Assembly: GCA_033762295.1 (NCBI GenBank)
Contig: JANRLW010000022.1
Location: 1 to 19,135 of the forward strand
DNA: 19,135 bases
Direction: 5' to 3'
DNA from: Capsulimonadales bacterium
GTDB taxonomy: Bacteria > Armatimonadota > Armatimonadia > Armatimonadales > Armatimonadaceae
Shown: one piece after another, positions 1,338-16,173 of the stretch
Layout: every line of letters starts with the position of its first letter
Numbering within the stretch: the first letter of the stretch is position 1
The notes under the pieces: model-generated
Database searches by the model: none
What the model was told of the DNA's origin: nothing
The model's input: the letters and a program-made list of their open reading frames with translations, nothing else
Made by a program: the position numbers and the translations under genes

Positions 1338-1979
1338 ACGGGAAACCTAAACAACGGCACGGGTACCCGGAAAGACAGCCTGGATACGGACGCCTTCGGT
1401 CGGTTCGTTTCGGGAACGGGCAGTACGCCGACACCGTTCGGTTGCGCCGGTGGGTTCGGGTATCAGGCGGACGCCAGCGGGTTAATGCTCCTCGGGCACC
1501 GGTACTATGATGCCTCGACGGGACGGTTCCTCTCCAGGGATCCGATCCACGATGGGTATAACTGGTACGCCTACTGCGGAAACGATCCGGTGAACTGGGT
1601 GGATCCGGAAGGGTTTGTGGCAGCGGCTCTGGTCTTGGGTGGCTTAGGGCTTACATTTACCGCCCCTGCATGGGTGCCAGTAGTAATCGTTGTCGCCGTC
1701 GTTGGTTTCATTGCGTGGATTGCGTGGGATATATGGCATAGCCAAGGCAGTATAGTAGGAACACCAGGGTCAACAGTAGCGATTGACGATCCGGGCAAGC
1801 CCGGTCATGGTAAAATTCGAACCTATGGCCCTGATGGTTATCCAATCAAGGATATAGATTTTGGTCACGATCATGGTTTTGGTGACCCCCACGCACATGA
1901 TTGGTCGCGACCGATTATTGACCCAAGTCAACCGCATAAAAACCGCGGCCGCGGACGTCCCCTGCGACCGGATGAGTGA
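1338..1979 (+). CDS. Orphan Rhs cassette 1: core remnant plus His-rich putative toxin CT (ATG at 1485)
   Basis: In frame from 1338: DTDAFG...TPFGCAGGFGYQADASGLMLLGHRYYDASTGRFLSRDPIHDGYNWYAYCGNDPVNWVDPEG (Rhs-associated core ending in DPxG). Then a hydrophobic helix and RTYGPDGYPIKDIDFGHDHGFGDPHAHDW. Confidence 0.85.
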   Translation, partial: TGNLNNGTGTRKDSLDTDAFGRFVSGTGSTPTPFGCAGGFGYQADASGLMLLGHRYYDASTGRFLSRDPIHDGYNWYAYCGNDPVNWVDPEGFVAAALVLGGLGLTFTAPAWVPVVIVVAVVGFIAWIAWDIWHSQGSIVGTPGSTVAIDDPGKPGHGKIRTYGPDGYPIKDIDFGHDHGFGDPHAHDWSRPIIDPSQPHKNRGRGRPLRPDE

Positions 1980-2100
1980 ACCATCTTTGGTTGTCGTTTC
2001 TTATGTGTTGGTAACTGTATCATATTTTCAGCTTTGCAAGGTGTTCACCATCGTCAAATTTGGGTTGACGACGATACACCGCAACCCGCCAACAACGTGA
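1972..2100 (+). CDS. Possible 42-aa hydrophobic peptide overlapping the toxin stop
   Basis: ATG at 1972 lies 5 nt before the CT stop (GATGAGTGA); translates as MSEPSLVVVSYVLVTVSYFQLCKVF...; no family recognised. Confidence 0.2.
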   Translation: MSEPSLVVVSYVLVTVSYFQLCKVFTIVKFGLTTIHRNPPTT

Positions 2101-2128
2101 ATGAAATGACGACCCCATCTTTGTAGTT

Positions 2129-2160
2129 AGATGGGGGATGCTCCCCCCATCTTTCTTTTA
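2129..2160 (+). terminator. Intrinsic-terminator-like hairpin with a competing upstream stem
   Basis: AGATGGGGG-ATGCTC-CCCCCATCT followed by TTCTTTTA; CCCCATCT at 2113-2120 can pair with the same left arm. Confidence 0.5.
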
Positions 2161-2182
2161 TTGAAAGTTTGGAGCCGTTATA

Positions 2183-2671
2183 ATGTTGTTTACAATTGAT
2201 TCAACCGACTTCTCTGCCATTACTGACATTGTAACGACCATGTTTCGTGATGGAAGTCCATTTGGTCAAGTGCTTTTGCGCGTTATCGACAGCGAGTTTG
2301 TCCTGTTGCGCCCATCTGAATGGGTTATAGGTATAGGTGAACGAACACAAAAACAAGCCAAAATCGTACGTTCTGGAATTCAAGTAGATTGGAACGTTTT
2401 TCTCACTCTGGTTGATTCAGGGTACTTCAATGGCTTCGATGAGGTTTGGCTGCTCGCTGATATCGGAAGTTTCGATAAGCTCGATGAAGCGTTTGTTATT
2501 TATGAAATTGGCCCGTATGAAGCTTTTGACGATTCACCAAAAGGGCTCGCTTTTCGGAAGCAGTTATCAAAACAAGAGAAAACGATCGGGCTTCTTGATG
2601 GGATTCGCCTTTCGATAGTCGCATCGGATCCGGAACTGGCCCAGGGAATAATCGCAAGCCAGAGCAAGTAA
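2183..2671 (+). CDS. Putative immunity protein for Rhs CT1
   Basis: Low-GC acidic 162-aa ORF with a GGAG RBS, downstream of a toxin CT. Assignment is by position only. Confidence 0.55.
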   Translation: MLFTIDSTDFSAITDIVTTMFRDGSPFGQVLLRVIDSEFVLLRPSEWVIGIGERTQKQAKIVRSGIQVDWNVFLTLVDSGYFNGFDEVWLLADIGSFDKLDEAFVIYEIGPYEAFDDSPKGLAFRKQLSKQEKTIGLLDGIRLSIVASDPELAQGIIASQSK

Positions 2672-2758
2672 GGGAACGCACTTGCGCAATTCGAACCGAA
2701 AGCGACTTTGCCTGTGCGAATTTAAATCCCATAGGAACCCACCCGTATCGGCTTTTCC

Positions 2759-2912
2759 GATGGCGCGGTCAACTACATCCAGGCAGGCGATGGCATTGTC
2801 TCGGAGACCCGTGGCAGTACGACGAGTTACTACCATGTCGCGGGACCCGATCCACGACGGGTACAACTGGTACACCTACTGCGAGAACGATCCGGTGAAT
2901 GGGGTGGACCCG
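2759..2912 (+). repeat. 154-bp direct repeat, copy 1 (internally deleted Rhs core)
   Basis: Matches 3878-4031 with 5 mismatches by manual alignment. Confidence 0.95.
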
Positions 2913-3251
2913 ACCGGATTAATTGTCGCTATATTAGGTCCCGCACTCTTGATTCCTGGTGTCGGGCAGGTAATTGCTGTAGGTGCGATTATCATTGGTA
3001 TAGGCGCGGCTATCGTCGCCATTGGAAGTCTGATTGATGACATAGTTAATAACTCTTCAGATACCGGTCCCGGAACGCCACCGACGAGCGATCCTTACGG
3101 GAAACCATTACCACCCGGTACAAAGATCAACTGGGATGAACCGAATGACCATCACTCTGGTCATTACGATGTCGATTTGCCATATCCCGGCGCTCCTATC
3201 CGGGTAACCCACGCAGCAACCAGTGGGAGGAGAAGATCGGGGCCCCAATGA
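2835..3251 (+). CDS. Orphan Rhs cassette 2: minimal core plus putative toxin CT
   Basis: MSRDPIHDGYNWYTYCENDPVNGVDPTG, then a Gly-rich hydrophobic segment and a His-containing domain (NWDEPNDHHSGHYDV). Its stop overlaps the next ATG (ATGA). Confidence 0.8.
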   Translation: MSRDPIHDGYNWYTYCENDPVNGVDPTGLIVAILGPALLIPGVGQVIAVGAIIIGIGAAIVAIGSLIDDIVNNSSDTGPGTPPTSDPYGKPLPPGTKINWDEPNDHHSGHYDVDLPYPGAPIRVTHAATSGRRRSGPQ

Positions 3252-3727
3252 ACAAAGATTATAAAGATTATGAAGAGCGATTGGCTGATTTGGACGACCC
3301 GAATGCATCTCCGGAGATCGATATTGAACTTCACATCGAAATCTGCCACGTTCGAATTAACTGGCCTAGTCTTATTGATTGGCTACTGAGCTTGCATGGT
3401 CTATCGGTAAGTTATCCGTTGCATGAGGATGTGGATTTGTGGGCTACTCCAACCCATCAGGCAGCCGTTGCATCAGAAGGGGCGATCCCTATTCGTATCT
3501 TGACGATTTACTTGATTGACGATCAAGAAAAGCCCAAATACAAGCAAACAATAAGCGGAATGATGGATATCGTCCGTGGAATGCCTCAAAGGCGTATTTA
3601 CATTTACGCTTCGCGGCGACAGATATGGGACGCGTTCGTTTCGTTATACCAAGGTTACATTGAAACGACAATCCGTCCGAAAAGTGTTTCCATTTTCGAT
3701 GGTTTGGTTAATGTCGTTCTCCAATAA
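3248..3727 (+). CDS. Putative immunity protein for Rhs CT2
   Basis: ATGA translational coupling with the CT2 stop; low GC; 159 aa. Confidence 0.65.
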   Translation: MNKDYKDYEERLADLDDPNASPEIDIELHIEICHVRINWPSLIDWLLSLHGLSVSYPLHEDVDLWATPTHQAAVASEGAIPIRILTIYLIDDQEKPKYKQTISGMMDIVRGMPQRRIYIYASRRQIWDAFVSLYQGYIETTIRPKSVSIFDGLVNVVLQ

Positions 3728-3760
3728 AACCGTGTCAAGAGCTCAGGCTTGGTCTCCTGA

Positions 3761-4034
3761 ACGACCGGCGGCACTTACACGTACAACGGCATGGAGCAGG
3801 GGGTGCGCAAAGTGGAGGGCGGGAGCACCTTCAACTACACCCGCGAGGACGATCCGATCGATGCCGCTGTGCTCTCGGATGGCGCGGCCAGCTACATCCA
3901 GGCAGGCGATGGCATTGTCTCGGAGACCCGTGGCACTACGACAAGTTACTACCATGTCGCGGGACCCGATCCACGATGGGTACAACTGGTACACCTACTG
4001 CGAGAACGATCCGGTGAATGGGGTGGACCCGTGA
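3761..4034 (+). pseudogene. Rhs core remnant lacking any toxin CT
   Basis: TTGGTYTYNGMEQGVRKVEGGSTFNYTREDD...SDGAASYIQAGDGIVSETRGTTTSYYH, then a frame change to MSRDPIHDGYNWYTYCENDPVNGVDP*. The stop comes right after DP. Confidence 0.85.
3878..4031 (+). repeat. 154-bp direct repeat, copy 2
   Basis: Near-identical to 2759-2912, offset 1119 bp. Confidence 0.95.
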
Positions 4035-6066: not shown

Positions 6067-6978
6067 CTAAAGAGTGGGCTGGTTCTTTGTTGATTTTCGA
6101 TCGCCATCACCCGAAAGATCCGGACGGTGTCGGGGGGCGGTGGTGGGTCGCGGGGTGTCGGGGAGGCGGGCGTTGCGGAGGATGTGGCGGACGGCGTCCT
6201 GATGGGTGGGTGGGTCAACCGGCGGGTGTGCCGCCGTTTGGGAGGGGCCGGATCGGGCGAGGTAGTCCCGGGTTCGGCGAATGCCCTGCAGGCAAAGGGC
6301 GTCGAGCAGGATGGTGATTTTGAGGGTGATGTATTTGTGCGCCTGACGGCGCGGGAGGCCGATGCGCTGTTTGCGGGATTGCGGACGGGCGTCGGGGAAC
6401 GTTATCCTGGCACCCGGTTCCTGGCCCCCCGGCCCCCGCACACGACGCTCGTGCCGCAGGCGGGGGAGAGAAGAGTGCGTGAGGCCGGAGAATTTGGCGG
6501 TGCCGACTTCGCGGAGAAGGTGGCGGATCGCCTGGAGGTAGTTCCTGCCGGTGGCGTGGCAGTAACGGTCGAGATGCCAGTGGGAATGGACATCCAGGTA
6601 GAGTGTGAGGAGTTGAGAAGGCCCCCCGGCCCCCGCAGGCGGGGGAGAAGGGACGTGGCACGACCTGCTTCTCGCATGGGCGCCCCCCGGCAACGCAAGC
6701 GGGGGAGAAGGAGAGGGGTAGAGGTCGGTGTTCATTTTGCCGCAGGTTTTGCATTTGTATTTTTGTGCGCCGTTTTTGGCGAAGCCGCGTTTGATGCAGG
6801 GACCGTTGCATTGCGGGCAGGGGCGTTCGGTCAGGTCGGGGCGGCGATGGGCGTAGTAGTAGCGTCCACAGGCGCGGCAGCGGAACTGTGGGTTATTGGG
6901 GGTGCCACCATTGCGGACGGCATTGCCGGACTTACAGTGTGGGCAAGCGGGTGTGTTGTTGGTGCGGGTGCCGCTCAT
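6067..6978 (-). CDS. Protein with two InsA-like Zn ribbons and two ribbon-helix-helix-like segments
   Basis: CPHC..VRNG..QFRCRACGR and CPQC..IKRG..QKYKCKTCGK. C-terminal half has LTLYLD...QAIRHLLRE and ITILLD...DAVRHILRN. No DDE domain recognised. Confidence 0.6.
   Translation of the reverse strand: MSGTRTNNTPACPHCKSGNAVRNGGTPNNPQFRCRACGRYYYAHRRPDLTERPCPQCNGPCIKRGFAKNGAQKYKCKTCGKMNTDLYPSPSPPLALPGGAHARSRSCHVPSPPPAGAGGPSQLLTLYLDVHSHWHLDRYCHATGRNYLQAIRHLLREVGTAKFSGLTHSSLPRLRHERRVRGPGGQEPGARITFPDARPQSRKQRIGLPRRQAHKYITLKITILLDALCLQGIRRTRDYLARSGPSQTAAHPPVDPPTHQDAVRHILRNARLPDTPRPTTAPRHRPDLSGDGDRKSTKNQPTL
6621..6647. repeat. Dispersed copy of the palindromic repeat seen at 8251-8410, here inside a CDS
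   Basis: GCCCCCCGGCCCCCGCAGGCGGGGGAG is 24/27 identical to the tandem unit. Degenerate copies at 6424-6468 and 6682-6707. Confidence 0.8.
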
Positions 6979-8232: not shown

Positions 8233-8250
8233 AGTTTTTACCTTTAGATG

Positions 8251-8410
8251 GCCCCCCGGCCCCCGTAAACGGGGGAGCGGAGGCCCCCCGGCCCCCGTAA
8301 ACGGGGGAGCGGAGACCCCCCGGCCCCCGTAAACGGGGGAGCGGAGGCCCCCCGGCCCCCGTAAACGGGGGAGTGGAGGCCCCCCGGCCCCCGTAAACGG
8401 GGGAGTGGAG
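8251..8410. repeat. Tandem array of five 32-bp palindromic units with no spacers
   Basis: (G/A)CCCCCCGGCCCCCGTAAACGGGGGAG(C/T)GGAG at 8251, 8283, 8315, 8347 and 8379; internal stem CCCCCG-TAAA-CGGGGG. Confidence 0.97.
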
Positions 8411-8447
8411 ATCCCTCGCTCAGGCGGTGGGAACGACGGGTGGGATT

Positions 8448-9698: not shown

Positions 9699-10616
9699 TT
9701 AGAACCAGTTGACGGCCCAGCGGAGTTCACCCCAGACGGTTCGACCGTCCTGTCCGGGTGTGACGTGCCGCCACCAGGGGAGGACCTGGTTGATCTGGGA
9801 GCGGCGGTTGGCCCCTTCGCCACTGACGATCCGGAACCATTTGGCATGTCCGTCTGCGAAGGCGAAGTTTGCGCCGCCGGCATGGAACGGGGTGTTGACC
9901 GCGCCGCTCGCGCCGTTGATGCCGCAGTGTTCGGCGGCCCAACCGGGGGTGGTGACGATATTGCCGGCGGGGAAGTTTTCGATGCCGGGGAACGGGCTTC
10001 CGTCGTAGGCGACGCCGGTGAGGAGGCATCCGACGTTCTCGGCGATGATCGGCGACCCGCTGTTCATCGCGGGGTTATTGGCCATTCCCCACATTCGTCC
10101 CTCGGTGAAGGTGATGGTGTCGGCGGGGGCGACGAAACCGGCGAGGGCGACGGGGTTATGCTGAGCGTTGGCGGTGCCGTGGAGATCCCAGCGATATCCG
10201 GCGAGCATATCGTTGAAGAGATAGGTCGTCGGGGTGAGATCATAGCGGGAGCGCTGGTTGGAGCCGTCGGAGGGACATTTCTTGACCTGCTGGTTCTTCA
10301 TATAGGGGAGGAGGGAGTTGAACCATTGCGAGGTCCAGGGCGGGGTCTGGAGTTCGTGCATGAATTCGGCTCCGCCCATCGGACTGCGTTCATCGTAGTC
10401 CTGAACGTACATGACGAAGGCGAGGCCCCATTGCTTCATATTGGAGAGACAGGAGGCCTGCCGGGCTTTCTCGCGAGCCTGAGCGAAGACGGGGAAGAGG
10501 ATCGCGGCCAGAATGGCGATAATAGCGATAACCACGAGCAGTTCGATGAGCGTGAAAGCGGACCGGGAAGGGGAACGGCGGTTGGTCCGTCGGGAAACCG
10601 GCGATTGGTGCAGCAT
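9699..10616 (-). CDS. Prepilin-type N-terminal cleavage / H-X9-DG domain protein (DUF1559-like)
   Basis: [64 protein letters not shown]. Confidence 0.93.
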
Positions 10617-10813
10617 TGCGATACTTTGCCTTTCTACATCGAGTGAGTCGCGCCAACGTTCTGCGCCGGGCATGAAGCGCAGGAGGGAAGCGACGGCGGT
10701 GTTTTGTTGGGGCGAGCCCGATCGGCCCCGTCGCCGTCAATTTATGATAACGATTCCATAGGCTCTTCGGTTCCCGATCTCTCGTATTTTTTTCAATGAA
10801 TTTGTTTGGGGGT

Positions 10814-11716
10814 TCAGGGGCGATCGGTTGCTGGCGGGGATGTGTCGGTGTCGACGAGGGTGGTCAGGGTGACGCCGGGGTAACGGTTCGGGAGGATCGA
10901 GGGGGTGATGCGATAATCGGCGAAGCGGCGGGGGGCGAGGACGTCGGGTTGAAGTTCGACGTGGACGGTGTCGAAGAGGGACTGTGCGGGGGCATTACCG
11001 AGGGGGGAATCGTGGGAGAAGATCCGGAGTCCGCGGCAGACCATGTTTCCTCGGGCGGCGGAGCGATCGAGGTCCCAGAAGTGGGTGAGGGCTTCCCAGA
11101 GGAGGGCGAGGTCGGCTTCGGTGACGCCGGTTTGTCGTGCGAGCGGAGCGGAGACGTATCCGTAGGCGCGGTAGAGGGCGTAAGGTACGACGGCTTTTCG
11201 GGCGAAGGTGCGGTTTTCTCCTCCCTGGAGTTCGGATTCCTTGCCTGTGGCGACGGCAGTCCGTGTGAGGAGGAGGTCCATCGGGAAGATGGGGTCGAAG
11301 GAGCGGGCGAAGGTGAACTGAACGGGTCCGCGCACCTGGCCGGCGTTGAACTCTTTCAGGGACATGACGGCCCCGAAGAGGCGGACGTCGTAGAACAGTT
11401 CGCACATGCGACGTCGGGCGGCGTCGGGGGTTGCGGCGGCACCGAGGGAGTCGTAGGCTCGCTGCCGTTGTCGGGCGAGGACGGATTTTTCCTGTACGTA
11501 GATATCGAAGCCGGGGCGATCCTCGGCGGTGAGGGTGACGTAGTTGCGGATTTTTCGTTTGAGACAGACATCGGTGACGATCCCGTGACCGGTTTGCGGG
11601 TCGGCGCGGGGTAGGTTTCCGGCTTCGGGGTCGCCGTTGGGGTTGCCGTCGGTGACGTCGAACAGCAGGAGGAAATCGTGGCGGCGGTTCGGATCGGTAT
11701 GGATGGATGGTTTCAC
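10814..11716 (-). CDS. cas7c: Type I-C Cas7 (Csd2)
   Basis: FDVTDGNPNGDPEAGNLPR, VTDVCLKRKIRNYV, YDVRLFGAVM, GQVRGPVQF, DRSAARG, HDSPLGNAPA. The GTG start overlaps the cas5 stop (GTGA), with a GGAG RBS. Confidence 0.96.
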   Translation of the reverse strand: MKPSIHTDPNRRHDFLLLFDVTDGNPNGDPEAGNLPRADPQTGHGIVTDVCLKRKIRNYVTLTAEDRPGFDIYVQEKSVLARQRQRAYDSLGAAATPDAARRRMCELFYDVRLFGAVMSLKEFNAGQVRGPVQFTFARSFDPIFPMDLLLTRTAVATGKESELQGGENRTFARKAVVPYALYRAYGYVSAPLARQTGVTEADLALLWEALTHFWDLDRSAARGNMVCRGLRIFSHDSPLGNAPAQSLFDTVHVELQPDVLAPRRFADYRITPSILPNRYPGVTLTTLVDTDTSPPATDRP

Positions 11717-12417
11717 GGGTGGCGCTCCGGGCGATCGTAGAGGTGTGCGGGCACGTGGAGGACGCCGCGGCGGACGTGCGCGACGAAGAACCGGGGCTGG
11801 TTTTCCTCCGGGTCGGCGGCGTAGTCGATGTCGAAGAGCATGCGCTCGGGGGGCAGGTCGACGGGAACGGGTTTGAGGGGACCGGGATATCGTTCGGGCG
11901 GGAGGAAATCGGCGGCGAATTCCCGGCATCCGAGGGCGGGTCGGTGGAAACAGCGTCCTTTGTCGACGCGTCGTCGGAAAGCGTCACGAAACCGGGCGAT
12001 CGGTTCGGGAACGTCGGTTCGTGGTTCGATATCGGCGCAGATGCGGTAGGCGACGTTGCGGAGGGCGAGGGTATGTCTTTGCGTGCGACGTTCGGCGATA
12101 TCGATCGGGCGGGGTCGTTTCCTGCGGGGATCGGGGACGGTGTCGGTGAGTTCGTTTCGGAGCAGGGAGACGAAGGCGATCGGTCGAAGGATTTCGATCC
12201 GGCGGATTCGGTAGCGGAATTCGGGTTTCCAGTAGATGGCTTCGAGCATTCCGCGTGCGGCGGACGGTGTGGGGAGGGGATAGGAGACGCGTTCGACCTT
12301 CGTTTCGGGGCGTGTGAAGCAGGCGTACTCACCGAGGAGGACGGCTTCGACGGGTGGGGTTTTCGGATCGGACGCGCCCTGCGCCGCAGGGCGGTCCATT
12401 CGAGTTTCAATCCTCAT
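11713..12417 (-). CDS. cas5c: Type I-C Cas5 (Cas5d)
   Basis: GEYACFTRPETKVERVSYPLPTPSAARGMLEAIYWKP, RTQRHTLALRNVAY, KGRCFHRPALGCREF. ATGA overlap with cas8c; alternative ATG at 12399. Confidence 0.96.
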   Translation of the reverse strand: MRIETRMDRPAAQGASDPKTPPVEAVLLGEYACFTRPETKVERVSYPLPTPSAARGMLEAIYWKPEFRYRIRRIEILRPIAFVSLLRNELTDTVPDPRRKRPRPIDIAERRTQRHTLALRNVAYRICADIEPRTDVPEPIARFRDAFRRRVDKGRCFHRPALGCREFAADFLPPERYPGPLKPVPVDLPPERMLFDIDYAADPEENQPRFFVAHVRRGVLHVPAHLYDRPERHP

Positions 12418-12449
12418 CCGCCGGTCTCCGTTTCGGAGGCGGATGCGAC
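12404..12449 (-). CRISPR. Solitary type I-C CRISPR-repeat-like element at the cas8c/cas5 junction (not an array)
   Basis: GTCGCATCCGCCTCCGAAACGGAGACCGGCGGATGAGGATTGAAAC: GTCGC start, 8-bp stem CATCCGCC/GGCGGATG, 11-nt tail AGGATTGAAAC. No second copy found by eye. Confidence 0.75.
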
Positions 12450-14096
12450 GGGGGGGCGTTCGCGTTGTTCGGGGGGATAGGGGACGCGGACGACCGGGCG
12501 GGGTGCGTTCGGGAAGTGCCGTTCGGTTCTTTCGGCGAAGTAACCGAGGGCGAACGCGGCCTGTTGTTCGGGGGTCAGTGTTTCGGGGAGGGGGTGGGGG
12601 AGGGGGTGGTGCGGGGCGAGCGGGTACTGGGTATCAAAGTCTTCGGGCATCCGGGCGGCGAAGGCGTCGCGCGGGCGGGTCATGGCATGGGCGAGGCGTC
12701 GTTGGGCGAAGCGGTAGTCGCCACGGGCGGCGGCGGTTCGTTCGAGTTGAGAAAACAGGCGTCCGAGCCGGGCGGCGTCGGAAGTGGCATCATGGAGGGC
12801 CGACGTTTCGGGTCGTGCGGCGAGGAGGAGTTTGAACAGGGCGGCGAGCGGGCGGGGAACGAGTTCGGGTGCGGGGTGGGCACCGGGATCGTGGGGGGTG
12901 TATCCGACCTGGCAGCGTCGGAGGGCGCGGGGTAGGAGGGCGTTCGGCGGCGGTGTGTCGGTGAGTGCGCAGGCGACCATGGCGTCGTAGAGGGCGTTGG
13001 GCACGTCGGCGCGGGTCGGGAAGGCGGCTTCGGTGATCCGGCTGACGGGCAGGGGTTCGGCTTCGAGATCGTTCCAGGGGTCGGGGACGGCGGTGAGGCG
13101 GTTCCAGCGTTGTTCGGCGGCTTCGAGTTCGGCGGCGGTGAGTCGGAATCCGGAGCGGAACACGATCCGTCCGCCGCTGTGGCAGGAGAGTCCGATCAGG
13201 AAGCAGGGGGCTTCCGGGGGGAGGGGCGTTCCGGTTTCGGCGGCGTGGCCGACGAGGAGGCGTCGAGCGGCGGGGACGGCGCCTTCGGGGGACCAGGCGA
13301 CGTAGCGGATGCCTCGATCCCAGTCGCCGAGGGTGAAGGCGTGGGTTTCGGAATCGAGAAGGGATTCAAGGGCGAGAGCGGTTCGTTCGGCGGCATCGCG
13401 TCCGATCGGGGCGGAGAATTCACCGAGGTTATGTGACCGGAAGGCTTCGGCGTTGAGGGAGGAGAGGGCGGCTCCGGAGGGTTGTGCGCCGGGGACGTTT
13501 CGGAGGGAGACGGGGAGGCGTGGTTCGACGGAGGCGGGTTTTCCGGTGACGAGGCAGATCATGCGGCGGGCGCGTGGCTGGCGCAGGCAGTCATACCAGA
13601 AGTTTCGGACGGCGGGCAGGTCCTGGGGGAAGTGTCCGTCGACGCGGAAGGCGATCCGGTCCGTCGGTTTGAGGTCTTCGGGCAGATCGATTTCGGGGCG
13701 TTCGGGGTTCCATCGTTCGAGGAAGGCGAGAACGGTGAGGAGTAGGGGGTCGCCGACGGTCTCGTAGCAGCGTCGGACGAGGTTTCGGAACGCGGCGCGG
13801 TGTTCGGGAAAGCGGTCGGTCGGGATGCGGGCGCGGAGACGGTCGGCGGGGTCGATACCGAGGACATATTTGGCGTTATCGACGAGCAGTACGGGGGCGA
13901 TATTGGAGGATCGTTCGCGGAAGGGGAGGCAGGAACGGACGGGTTCGGTGTTCCAGGTGACATGATCGGCGTCGTGGCGGGTATCGAGGACGTGTCGGAG
14001 GGTTTGCCAGCGGTATCCGGCCGGGGGGTAGGGCAGGCCGGGGTGGGTGCGGGCAAAGAGGATTTCGGCATCGCGGTGGAGTTCGGAAAGGAACAT
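12414..14096 (-). CDS. cas8c: Type I-C Cas8c (Csd1), divergent
   Basis: RSSNIAPVLLVDNAKYVLG, ICLVTG, GAQPSGAALSSLNAEAFRSH, GGRIVFR, LGRLFSQLE, LTPEQQAAFALGYF. Confidence 0.92.
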   Translation of the reverse strand: MFLSELHRDAEILFARTHPGLPYPPAGYRWQTLRHVLDTRHDADHVTWNTEPVRSCLPFRERSSNIAPVLLVDNAKYVLGIDPADRLRARIPTDRFPEHRAAFRNLVRRCYETVGDPLLLTVLAFLERWNPERPEIDLPEDLKPTDRIAFRVDGHFPQDLPAVRNFWYDCLRQPRARRMICLVTGKPASVEPRLPVSLRNVPGAQPSGAALSSLNAEAFRSHNLGEFSAPIGRDAAERTALALESLLDSETHAFTLGDWDRGIRYVAWSPEGAVPAARRLLVGHAAETGTPLPPEAPCFLIGLSCHSGGRIVFRSGFRLTAAELEAAEQRWNRLTAVPDPWNDLEAEPLPVSRITEAAFPTRADVPNALYDAMVACALTDTPPPNALLPRALRRCQVGYTPHDPGAHPAPELVPRPLAALFKLLLAARPETSALHDATSDAARLGRLFSQLERTAAARGDYRFAQRRLAHAMTRPRDAFAARMPEDFDTQYPLAPHHPLPHPLPETLTPEQQAAFALGYFAERTERHFPNAPRPVVRVPYPPEQRERPPVASASETETGG

Positions 14097-14144
14097 GACG
14101 TGTTAAGAAACTCCGTATCCTGGCGTCCAAACGTCGGTGTGTGG

Positions 14145-14173
14145 ATTGTACCGTTCGTCCGGTCGGCTGTCAA
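14145..14173 (-). promoter_or_regulatory. Sigma70-type promoter of the cas operon
   Basis: Minus strand TTGACA (14173-14168), 17 nt, TACAAT (14150-14145), about 50 nt upstream of the cas8c ATG. Confidence 0.8.
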
Positions 14174-14231
14174 TGGGATTTTTCTTCGCCGGGTCGGTCG
14201 GATCGCGTCCGGTCGTGCCATAATGGGGAGG

Positions 14232-14699
14232 ATGAATTACTGGCTGATCAAGAGCGAACCGTCGGTGTTTTCGATCGACGATCTGGCGCGGGTCGGGGTG
14301 ACGTGCTGGGACGGGATTCGGAATTACCAGGCGCGGAATTATTTGCGGGACGGGATGCGTGTGGGCGACCGTGTTTTGTTTTACCATTCGAACGCGGACC
14401 CTCCGGCGGTGGTGGGGATTGCGGAGGTGGTTCGGGAGGCGTATCCGGATTCGACGGCGCTGGACCCGGAGCATCCGCATTTCGATCCGCGCAGTACTCC
14501 GGAGAACCCGATCTGGCTGATGACGGATATCGGGTTTGTGGCGAAGTTTTCTTCGGCGGTGCCGCTGGAGCGTTTGAAGGACGAGGCGGAACTGTCGGGA
14601 ATGGCGGTGATTCGGCGGGGGATGCGTCTTTCGGTGCAGCCGGTGACGGAGGCGCATTTCCGTCGGGTGTGCGAGATGGGCGGGCTGACGTTTCCTTGA
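14232..14699 (+). CDS. EVE domain-containing protein
   Basis: MNYWLIKSEPSVFSIDDL, WDGIRNYQARNYLR, GDRVLFYHSN, RLSVQPV. Extended -10-like TGCCATAAT at 14216-14224. Confidence 0.95.
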   Translation: MNYWLIKSEPSVFSIDDLARVGVTCWDGIRNYQARNYLRDGMRVGDRVLFYHSNADPPAVVGIAEVVREAYPDSTALDPEHPHFDPRSTPENPIWLMTDIGFVAKFSSAVPLERLKDEAELSGMAVIRRGMRLSVQPVTEAHFRRVCEMGGLTFP

Positions 14700-14725
14700 C
14701 AGCGGATTTGCGGTGGCGATAGAAT
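14696..14725 (+). promoter_or_regulatory. Sigma70-type promoter upstream of purA
   Basis: TTGACA (14696-14701), 18 nt, TAGAAT (14720-14725). Confidence 0.65.
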
Positions 14726-14753
14726 AGGCCGTTCATTCGAGATTCCTCTAACG

Positions 14754-14782
14754 GGATAGCGTACGCTATCCTTTTTCTTTTT
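14754..14782 (+). terminator. Intrinsic terminator-like perfect palindrome
   Basis: GGATAGC-GTAC-GCTATCC followed by TTTTTCTTTTT. Confidence 0.7.
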
Positions 14783-14814
14783 CGGGGGTATTTCGGGAAG
14801 TAAGGAGCGCGAAA

Positions 14815-16173
14815 ATGGGCGCGGTGGCGGTGGTCGGGACGCACTGGGGCGACGAAGCGAAAGGCAAATTCGTCGACCTTATCGGGCAGGATGCGGATCT
14901 GGTGATTCGTTACGGCGGCGGTCCGAACGCAGGCCATACGGTGATGGTGGGCGAGGAGACGTATAAGTTCCATCTGATCCCCTCAGGCATTTTGAATCCC
15001 CGTTGTCAGTTGATCATGGCGGACGGCATGGCGCTCGATCCGGCGGTGCTGGTCGGGGAGATCGTGGGTTTGGAGGCGCGGGGGATATCGACGTCCCACC
15101 TGCGAATCTCCCACAACGCCCATGTGATTCTTCCGTACCATCAGCTGCTGGACCGTTTGGAGGAGCAATCCCGCGGTTCGAGCGCGATCGGCACGACGGG
15201 TCGAGGGGTCGGTCCCTGTTACGAGGACAAGGCGGGTCGTCGGGGGATCCGGATGGGCGATCTGATCGATCCGGCGCGTTTACGTTCCCGTCTGGCGGCG
15301 GTATTGCCTCAGAAGAATGCGATTCTGACGCGGGTTTACGGGGCGTCTGCGCTGGATGCGGACGGTTTGCTATCGGAGCTGGAGCCTCTGGCGGCGCGTC
15401 TTGCGCCGTTCGTGACGGACACCACGGCTCTGGCGATGGAGGCTCTGGCGGCGGGGAAGCGGATTCTGTTCGAGGGGGCGCAGGCAACGCTGCTGGACCT
15501 TGACAGCGGGACATATCCTTATGTGACGTCATCGCATCCGGTGGCGGGCGGCGCCTGTCTGGGGACGGGGATTCCGCCGACGGCGATTTCTCAGGTTCTG
15601 GGTGTGGTGAAGGCGTATACGACGCGTGTTGGTTCGGGGACGTTTCCGACGGAGTTGACGGATGCGCGGGGCGAACGGATTCGGGAGCGGGGTCAGGAGT
15701 ACGGGACGACGACGGGTCGTCCGCGGCGTTGCGGCTGGCTGGACGCGGTGGCGTTGCGTTACTCGGCGCGGCTGAACGGATTGACGGGGATCTGTGTGGG
15801 CCACCTGGATGTTCTGGCCGGTTTCGAGTCGGTGGCGATCTGCACGGCGTATCTTCGGAACGGGGTTCGGGTGACGGAGTTTCCGGGCGGGGATGTGAGT
15901 CATCTGGACGGTTGCGAACCGGAGTATGAGTGGCTGCCGGGCTGGTCGGAGACGGATATGGAGCGTGTGCGTGAGTTCGGGGACCTGCCGACGAACGCGC
16001 GGAACTATGTCCGGCGTGTGTCGGAGATTGCGGGCGTTCCGGCGGTACTGGTTTCTATCGGTCCGCGTCGCGATCAGACGCTGGTGGCACCGGATTGTCC
16101 TCCTCCGAGCGCTCTGTTTACGGCGGAAAGGGGCCAACCGATCGTTGGTATGGCCGTCGCTCGTGTGCTATAA
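14815..16173 (+). CDS. purA: Adenylosuccinate synthetase
   Basis: WGDEAKGK, GGPNAGHT, IGTTGRGVGP, FEGAQ..LLDLD.GTYPYVTSS, EYGTTTGRPRRCGW. Confidence 0.99.
   Translation: MGAVAVVGTHWGDEAKGKFVDLIGQDADLVIRYGGGPNAGHTVMVGEETYKFHLIPSGILNPRCQLIMADGMALDPAVLVGEIVGLEARGISTSHLRISHNAHVILPYHQLLDRLEEQSRGSSAIGTTGRGVGPCYEDKAGRRGIRMGDLIDPARLRSRLAAVLPQKNAILTRVYGASALDADGLLSELEPLAARLAPFVTDTTALAMEALAAGKRILFEGAQATLLDLDSGTYPYVTSSHPVAGGACLGTGIPPTAISQVLGVVKAYTTRVGSGTFPTELTDARGERIRERGQEYGTTTGRPRRCGWLDAVALRYSARLNGLTGICVGHLDVLAGFESVAICTAYLRNGVRVTEFPGGDVSHLDGCEPEYEWLPGWSETDMERVREFGDLPTNARNYVRRVSEIAGVPAVLVSIGPRRDQTLVAPDCPPPSALFTAERGQPIVGMAVARVL

Follow-up and report, generated by a model that had tools for sequence, protein, structure and literature searches.

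A diverged type I-C Cascade paralog without the Cas3-recruit loop, carrying a CRISPR repeat at its coding junction, as a candidate RNA-guided repressor in a Capsulimonadales bacterium

The type I-C CRISPR (short palindromic repeats, clustered and regularly interspaced) systems and some of their derivatives are the closest described counterparts of the locus reported here, a cas8c-cas5c-cas7c operon on contig JANRLW010000022.1 of a Capsulimonadales bacterium (assembly GCA_033762295.1). We refer to this trio as the window operon, the window being the whole analysed stretch of 19,135 nt. The canonical systems of N. lactamica and D. vulgaris (PDB 8G9S-8GAN, 8DEJ, 7KHA) are made of the same Cas5c, Cas7c and Cas8c families with the same fold, and share with the window operon the PAM (protospacer adjacent motif) loop, the wedge and the type of repeat with an 11-nt handle. 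Compared to them, the window operon is arranged differently, has neither cas3 nor adaptation genes nor an array linked to it, and bears a repeat within a coding junction, while its Cas8c has the recruit loop deleted and no internal Cas11c start.

The circuits of CRISPR RNA (crRNA)-like RNAs, or crlRNA/SRU circuits (CRISIS, bioRxiv 2024.12.27.630466; bioRxiv 2023.03.03.530964), are described with a solitary repeat placed directly upstream of cas5c and behind another gene, a conserved 11-nt handle and a 3' hairpin, and with an ordinary Cascade rather than a dedicated paralog. In the window operon, the repeat is instead preceded by cas8c itself, overlaps a stop and a start codon, and lacks a target in the promoter of the operon. 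The 2023 survey is described as having mapped only repeats outside open reading frames (ORFs) (bioRxiv 2023.03.03.530964). A CRISIS-like circuit with a matching target is present at the canonical locus of the same genome. The Cas3-less type I systems, including the I-C CRISPR-associated transposons (CASTs), have the same cas3-free Cascade and are presented as proposed DNA binders with guides possibly supplied in trans (bioRxiv 2021.08.16.456562; PMC10910872). The window operon differs from those in having no fusion and no transposase seen, and in being a chromosomal paralog beside housekeeping genes that coexists with its intact parent. Finally, RacrIC1 is reported as a virus-borne solitary I-C repeat of the same kind in a polycistronic mRNA (PMC10651486), and the Cas-homolog anti-CRISPRs as virus-borne Cas paralogs that could form non-productive complexes (bioRxiv 2023.06.24.545427). 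In contrast, the window repeat lies inside a complete three-gene Cascade operon with no prophage context seen; whereas a Racr repeat belongs to a mobile element and frequently neighbours acr genes, this one is chromosomal and has housekeeping-type neighbours. Judging from its sequence, the window operon would work like the crRNA-like RNA circuits and the Cas3-less Cascades, and appears to fall outside what defines canonical I-C, CRISIS, CAST and Racr.

We postulate, with moderate confidence, that the window operon is a subfunctionalised duplicate Cascade that acts as a bind-only RNA-guided repressor, a natural CRISPR interference (CRISPRi) system, with feedback through cleavage of its own mRNA. 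The features of the operon are as follows:

14145..14173, minus strand: putative sigma-70-type promoter, TTGACA-17-TACAAT, 11/12 matches
12414..14096, minus strand: cas8c paralog of 560 aa with intact N-terminal and wedge domains, a missing recruit loop and an eroded Cas11-like C-terminal domain
12404..12449, minus strand: solitary CRISPR repeat with 8-bp basal stem and intact 11-nt handle (Rfam, alignment, folding)
12370..12403, minus strand: spacer-like sequence behind the handle, including the second cas5c ATG (12399) and a strong hairpin
11713..12417, minus strand: cas5c paralog, 234 aa if translated from the first ATG and 228 aa if from the second
10814..11716, minus strand: cas7c paralog, 300 aa, GTG start (open frame and family match)

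An earlier sequence-only reading of this DNA had described three intact, translationally coupled ORFs under this promoter, and the frames, the ATGA and GTGA overlaps and the promoter match were all confirmed, the order on the minus strand being cas8c-repeat-cas5c-cas7c. Two sites resembling TTGACA-17-TACAAT occur in 10600-14900, against 0.4 in shuffled sequences. Window Cas7c scored 299.1 bits against TIGR02589 (cut-off 182.25), Cas5c 126.9 bits against TIGR01876 (cut-off 85), and Cas8c 179.4 bits against Pfam PF09709 (cut-off 27). Cas8c fell below the cut-off of the NCBIfam equivalog TIGR01863 (129.9 vs 218.65 bits), against which the Cas8c of the genome's canonical locus scores 271.9. The second ATG of cas5c may be its true start, since the ATGA overlap sits within the repeat. 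The gene order proved as non-canonical as that reading had proposed. A Cas5c match was present in 98 of 401 phylum genomes, and in the 29 best relative loci cas5c was followed by cas8c in 28, the other being cut off; out of at least 586 genome loci, the best 80 showed the same order in 78 cases, the other two being cut off or uninformative. In neither set did cas8c come first.

The genome itself (G000, 132 contigs, 94.5% complete) also encodes a canonical I-C locus. On contig C53, a WYL gene, cas3, an inserted 121-aa ORF and cas5c-cas8c-cas7c are followed by an array that reaches the contig end, and contig C76 starts with an array of the same repeat. The HD, Walker A, DEVQ and motif VI sequences of C53 Cas3 look intact. 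The absence of cas3, adaptation genes and array claimed for the window operon therefore holds at the locus, as none of cas3, cas1, cas2, cas4 or an array was seen in the window, and fails in part for the genome, where cas3 and an array lie on other contigs; cas1, cas2 and cas4 were not found in the assembly. The presence of cas3 and a cognate array on other contigs rules out an orphan system, and the suggested supply of both in trans is possible. We also observed that the genome has an I-C array of at least 24 spacers although cas1, cas2 and cas4 were not found, that the C53 array begins ~85 nt past cas7c without an AT-rich leader, and that the last full repeat of the C76 array is followed after ~370 nt by a degenerate extra one (L005:1184-1588).

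Window Cas8c, Cas5c and Cas7c share 41, 60 and 67% protein identity with the C53 copies, which were the best matches wherever a search with Cas7c, Cas5c or Cas8c returned them and, for Cas7c, the nearest among 7,999 scored candidates. The window operon is a paralog of the genome's own canonical I-C Cascade. In trees, the window, C53 and relative G010 proteins grouped at 100/100 with a long window branch, and the duplication was not datable relative to the split from G010 (AU p 0.22). This relative (95% complete) has one match per gene.

The following parts of window Cas8c are of note:

13272..13277, minus strand: join of a 33-nt in-frame deletion, between V274 and P275 (DNA alignment)
12516..12806, minus strand: Cas11-like C-terminal domain, internal start codon absent at the conserved place
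13902..13913, minus strand: PAM-interaction loop R62-S63-S64-N65, retained, aligned with R69-SGS of N. lactamica (Nla) and the GNG loop of D. vulgaris (Dvu)
13482..13484, minus strand: Q205, retained, opposite the Dvu Cas8c GAQ motif in the alignment

Most of the Cas3-recruit loop is lost with this deletion. In the alignment, the missing C53 residues correspond to A276-P297 of Nla Cas8, which is described as the recruit loop that meets the HD domain of Cas3 via conserved hydrophobic residues (bioRxiv 2023.08.05.552134), a contact restated in PMC11417383. We compared window Cas8c to 142 homologs (127 of 149 phmmer hits, namely those of at least 520 aa, plus C53 and 14 relatives), and found that the recruit-loop span measures 10 aa against a median of 22, with only one homolog as short. 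That homolog, P0213 (ENA, 467-kb contig), has the C-terminal half of a Cas5c fused in front, which recalls the Cas8-Cas5 fusion mentioned for an I-C system apparently without Cas3 (PMC10910872). The Cas8c homologs P0199 and P0237 also have a short recruit-loop region, and all three are possibly independent Cas3-blind variants.

Cas11c is reported to be made from an internal start within cas8c (bioRxiv 2020.04.18.045682; PMC7684278). The region of this start holds a Met in 126 of the 142 homologs, C53 included; it is absent in window Cas8c, and no in-frame ATG, GTG or TTG occurs between codons 401 and 471. The core of the Cas11-like domain spans 74 aa, against at least 87 in all 142 homologs, and conserved columns are kept less often in the C-terminal domain (21/42) than elsewhere (73/99, Fisher p 0.01). 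This domain, which caps the Cas11 filament, has lost helices.

Meanwhile, the parts expected to read the PAM are retained. In addition to the PAM loop, the alignment places N74/K76 and the invariant R310 in window Cas8c, and if the Dvu GAQ motif contains the strand-separating wedge residue Q212, then Q205 would be the counterpart of the wedge Gln (PAM and wedge residues of Dvu as given in bioRxiv 2022.06.15.496202). The Cas8c model (mean pLDDT 81) matches solved Cas8c structures, the best being 8g9t_K (TM 0.74), with low confidence at 486-496, 531-560 and other short stretches, and residues ~531-560 predicted to be disordered. In window Cas5c, Y62-W63 lie within a YWKP motif whose Tyr differs in Dvu, Nla and C53, and the triad Lys and His are unmapped. 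The alignments thus show a Cas8c in which the Cas3-recruit loop and the start of Cas11 are lost and the predicted PAM-reading parts are retained. The proposal of a nuclease-free complex is supported by these losses and retentions and by the purifying selection described below, but the genome around it is not free of Cas3.

The sequence-only reading had noted a repeat at the junction between cas8c and cas5c and suggested that it took part in the rearrangement, and a CRISPR repeat does mark this junction. This repeat is 46 nt long (37 nt in the array), its basal stem has a z of -2.95, and over its last 17 nt it matches the array repeat of the genome exactly. Rfam gave no other match in the window at E<=1; this one (CRISPR-DR9, E 0.0017) scored 30.9 bits and so did not reach the gathering score of 45. 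The cas8c stop codon, the first cas5c ATG and a Shine-Dalgarno-like GAGGA all overlap with the repeat. No other exact-handle site of the genome outside the main array follows a perfect stem of at least 6 pairs, and no other convincing solitary repeat was found in the genome besides an element on C53 and the degenerate copy that follows the C76 array. Cas5c is predicted to cut between 12415 and 12414, within the cas8c stop codon and just behind the first cas5c ATG, and the 11-nt handle contains the ribosome site for the second ATG. The 3' end of window cas5c resembles the C53 coupling sequence but is joined to cas7c rather than to cas8c, which fits a duplication with reciprocal loss. Besides marking the rearrangement, the junction repeat looks like a maintained Cas5c substrate.

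Residues identical between the window and C53 proteins use the same codon at frequencies of 0.56 in cas5c, 0.63 in cas7c and 0.53 in cas8c, compared to 0.55, 0.54 and 0.53 expected at saturation, with only cas7c slightly above (z 2.4). Synonymous sites are near saturation, and the frames are nevertheless open, in cas8c despite numerous indels, with conserved columns kept. These amount to 130/142 in Cas7c vs 61/143 other columns, 48/55 vs 79/206 in the Cas8c N-terminus, 22/27 vs 50/131 in its wedge/adaptor, and 18/33 vs 10/63 in its C-terminal remnant (p 1e-4); the substitutions of Cas7c and of each of the three Cas8c parts spare conserved columns (p 1e-19 to 1e-4). Near-invariant Cas5c columns are kept at 57/64 in the window copy and 56 in that of C53. 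An old divergence with open frames and kept conserved columns indicates long-term purifying selection on all three genes. Under neutral drift of 0.05 substitutions/site, all three frames stayed stop-free in 1.3% of 300 simulations; at 0.02 substitutions/site 23% were still stop-free, which leaves room for a very recent loss of function. The pairwise ratios of nonsynonymous to synonymous rates (dN/dS), 0.30, 0.40 and 0.70, rest on an underestimated dS, and a three-taxon codon likelihood reached its bounds and was uninformative.

A candidate guide is found at the canonical locus. Between cas3 and cas5c of C53, a degenerate solitary repeat is followed by a guide that matches a site ~95 nt upstream with a TTC PAM and 9/10 seed positions, a match equalled by 0.2% of 2,000 shuffled guides (p 0.002). 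The target lies just downstream of a consensus-like promoter that would drive the 121-aa ORF and the canonical cas5c-cas8c-cas7c. This segment (L004:4475-5160, minus strand), which comprises promoter, TTC-flanked target, degenerate repeat, terminator-like hairpin and the PD-(D/E)XK-like ORF, is probably a CRISIS/CreR-type circuit. A related layout with a solitary-repeat guide is described as repressing promoters (bioRxiv 2024.12.27.630466). The resemblance of the 121-aa ORF to small PD-(D/E)XK-type proteins (feature scores 0.88-0.90) is a lead only; a homolog precedes a cas5 in G003, where a matching self-target was not found. Self-targeting solitary repeats were present, likewise between cas3 and cas5c, in 3 of 13 relatives examined (G032, G036, G044), each matching at 9 or 10 of 10 positions. 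Relative G010 has a 7-nt gap in place of the C53 insertion, and no second operon was found in it; the self-targeting circuit of C53, absent in this relative without a second operon, probably reflects a standing need for a bind-only Cascade. None of the 28 array spacers targets the assembled genome (best match 28/38).

For the guide at the window junction, two weak candidate targets were noted:

12493..12515, minus strand: TTC PAM (12512), 8/10 seed positions; chance 0.6-1.2%, post hoc
14727..14743, minus strand: 12/14 matches next to an ATC PAM, which is non-canonical, over the presumed start site of the promoter before purA; post hoc

The former is located ~110 nt upstream of the guide. The match in the purA leader was rejected as a specific target: it is not discriminating, and its motif is conserved in relatives without the operon. 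Of 3,208 control 14-mers, 4 matched equally with a similar PAM and 29 with any PAM, and 123 genome sites match the junction guide at 12/14 or better. In the purA leader region itself (window 14696-14782, plus strand), a promoter precedes a short leader and, still before purA, an intrinsic terminator. Many family relatives share the leader motif and/or the terminator stem, Rfam gave no match, and the element is possibly an undescribed attenuator or small RNA.

Family searches confirmed the genes that had been named as flanks of the operon, both outside the system:

9699..10673, minus strand: DUF1559/prepilin-type gene, downstream neighbour
14232..14699, plus strand: EVE-domain gene, divergent upstream neighbour

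Conservation of the operon at a fixed locus found no support: no ortholog or same gene order was found, with no same-genus genome among those compared. Window Cas8c returned no ortholog from genome contigs, metagenome contigs or the 401 phylum genomes, nor from plasmids (26 records, all <60%). In a 5.8-billion set it matched only itself at E<=1e-20 among 8,000 scored, and among 1.84 billion proteins it is its own cluster representative, the next match being at 42%. Scans with Cas7c returned five metagenome and three viral loci, all canonical or too short to judge. EVE is present in 4 of 31 family genomes, none of which has the window's neighbours beside it, and no cas match occurs within the purA loci of relatives (28 examined, ~1.5 kb flanks). 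In a literature search covering titles, abstracts and passages of mostly non-subscription papers, we found no description of this gene order or of a recruit-loop-less paralog.

Under the repressor reading, Cas5c and Cas7c would load RNAs carrying the shared 11-nt handle, and the altered Cas8c would read a TTC-type PAM and open a short, seed-length R-loop that stalls RNA polymerase, the loop that docks the Cas3 HD domain being gone. The likeliest guide would be the crRNA-like RNA between cas3 and cas5c of the canonical locus, aimed at the site after the promoter of the small nuclease-like gene and the canonical cas5c-cas8c-cas7c. Free Cas5c would cut the repeat within the operon's own mRNA, splitting the cas8c stop codon and detaching the first cas5c ATG from its frame, while the ribosome site of the second cas5c start would stay in the bound handle. 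The outcome would be negative feedback when guides are scarce. The operon may stem from a Cascade block that was duplicated in tandem and then underwent reciprocal loss, or from a move of cas8c ahead of a repeat-cas5c unit. In I-E systems, Cas11 is reported to be dispensable for silencing (PMC12235044).

Several points weigh against this reading. The operon was found in one genome only, with no ortholog recovered, thus offering no comparative basis for its function. Its branches are 3 to 8 times those of C53 (1.44 vs 0.18 for Cas8c) and its proteins have a skewed composition enriched in Pro and Arg, suggesting a selection that is weaker or different and that would also be compatible with relaxation. 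No mutant test of the recruit loop was found in the available text of bioRxiv 2023.08.05.552134 or PMC11417383, and the second contact with Cas3, the anchor-loop groove at the Cas8 N-terminus, is not mappable in window Cas8c and may persist. The fusion in P0213, the only equally short homolog, may be a gene-calling artefact. Loss of Cas11 is reported to have abolished DNA binding in I-D (bioRxiv 2020.04.18.045682), such that the window complex may not bind DNA unless it borrows the canonical Cas11c. Canonical Cascade would already be able to repress with crRNA-like RNAs, making a second copy dispensable. Finally, the junction guide finds no match in the operon's own promoter (best 5/10 seed positions). 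A variant in which the operon is a self-contained CRISPRi unit, a Cas3-blind and Cas11-less Cascade with the guide in its own mRNA, where one cut shuts the operon and frees the guide to a host promoter (local candidate: the conserved leader of the purA-miaA-hfq block), seems doubtful to us.

A possible but less probable explanation is that of a decoy or brake, in which non-cutting complexes absorb anti-CRISPRs through the PAM pocket and Cas7, or compete for crRNA or subunits, with the repeat as a Racr-like scaffold. The retained surfaces are those reported to be bound by AcrIC4, AcrIC8, AcrIC9 and AcrIF2, a solitary I-C repeat inside an mRNA is described as inhibiting I-C immunity (RacrIC1, PMC10651486), and the near-consensus promoter and a hairpin from guide position 7, which would make a poor guide, point in the same direction. 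Yet the array spacers reveal no autoimmunity to restrain, and neither mobile-element hallmarks nor prophage context were seen around the operon. Its third codon positions are like those of same-strand neighbours (C3 0.58-0.66 vs 0.56-0.65), and no step in GC content or skew crosses it, thus giving no sign of recent arrival or misassembly. The same host-like composition, together with the origin of the genes as host paralogs, makes it very improbable that the operon is the targeting module of a Tn7-like I-C CAST or another mobile element. Reported I-C CASTs do carry cas5, cas7 and cas8 without cas3 or array (bioRxiv 2021.08.16.456562), but no tns or tniQ was seen among the window ORFs, in agreement with the sequence-only reading. 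Genome-wide, TniQ was not found by a search that is weak, as it matched 0/14 controls, and one marginal TniB-family match lies on another contig, a family that 13/14 controls match too.

Rather unlikely is a relic of an old duplication under relaxed selection, with an eroding Cas8c, a function recently lost or being lost, and a repeat kept as ribosome-binding site. The long branches, the Pro/Arg enrichment, the lack of an ortholog, the poorly kept Cas8c C-terminal columns and the simulations at the lower drift all agree with it. Against it, conserved columns are spared in every tested part, the C-terminal remnant included, the cas8c frame is open through its many indels, the promoter is near consensus, and the handle and stem base of the repeat are intact though synonymous sites are near saturation. 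We likewise regard as unlikely an ordinary redundant Cascade that receives Cas3, Cas11c and crRNA in trans and performs normal interference, perhaps escaping anti-CRISPRs by its divergence. The intact-looking Cas3 of C53, the common handle and the second contact of Cas3 on the Cas8 N-terminal domain (as described in bioRxiv 2023.08.05.552134) would permit it, but the hydrophobic recruit loop, which is reported as conserved and which we find to be longer in 141/142 homologs, is cleanly deleted, and the domain that caps the Cas11 filament is without some of its helices.

Other elements were observed in this genome. A five-repeat mini-array on contig C54 (L006:5946-6290) has an I-C-like repeat with a handle one base off that of the host; as it lies directly upstream of tape-measure and tail genes, it is prophage-borne, and none of its 4 spacers matches the genome. 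In the window, positions 1485-4031 (plus strand) contain three copies of a C-terminal motif resembling the Rhs core, and variable tails and small ORFs come after the first and second copies; we presume these to be probable orphan Rhs toxin-immunity cassettes, and the 4 ORFs scanned there had no Pfam match. Between an esterase gene and an M55 peptidase gene, ~5 tandem 32-nt GC-rich palindromic units, with related single copies, resemble REP elements (8250-8418 and 6619-6711). A 303-aa ORF at 6067-6978 (minus strand) encodes repeated zinc ribbons and has a weak InsA-like match below cut-off.

Nuclease-free Cascades are known mainly from transposons and from a few untested incomplete loci, whereas here one lies beside its intact parent in the same genome. 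What is new is the clean deletion of the Cas8c recruit loop, the loss of the Cas11 start, and a handle-intact solitary repeat at a coding junction. The pair reveals which surfaces were dropped (the Cas3-recruit loop and Cas11) and which were kept (the PAM loop, the wedge, Cas5c and Cas7c), and allows testing both the need for the recruit loop in Cas3 loading and silencing by a Cas11-less I-C complex. If our reading is true, the operon would represent a three-gene CRISPRi scaffold blind to the resident Cas3, and the cut site in its overlapping stop and start codons would represent an autoregulation of cas genes at the mRNA level, of a kind that would escape a survey limited to intergenic repeats.

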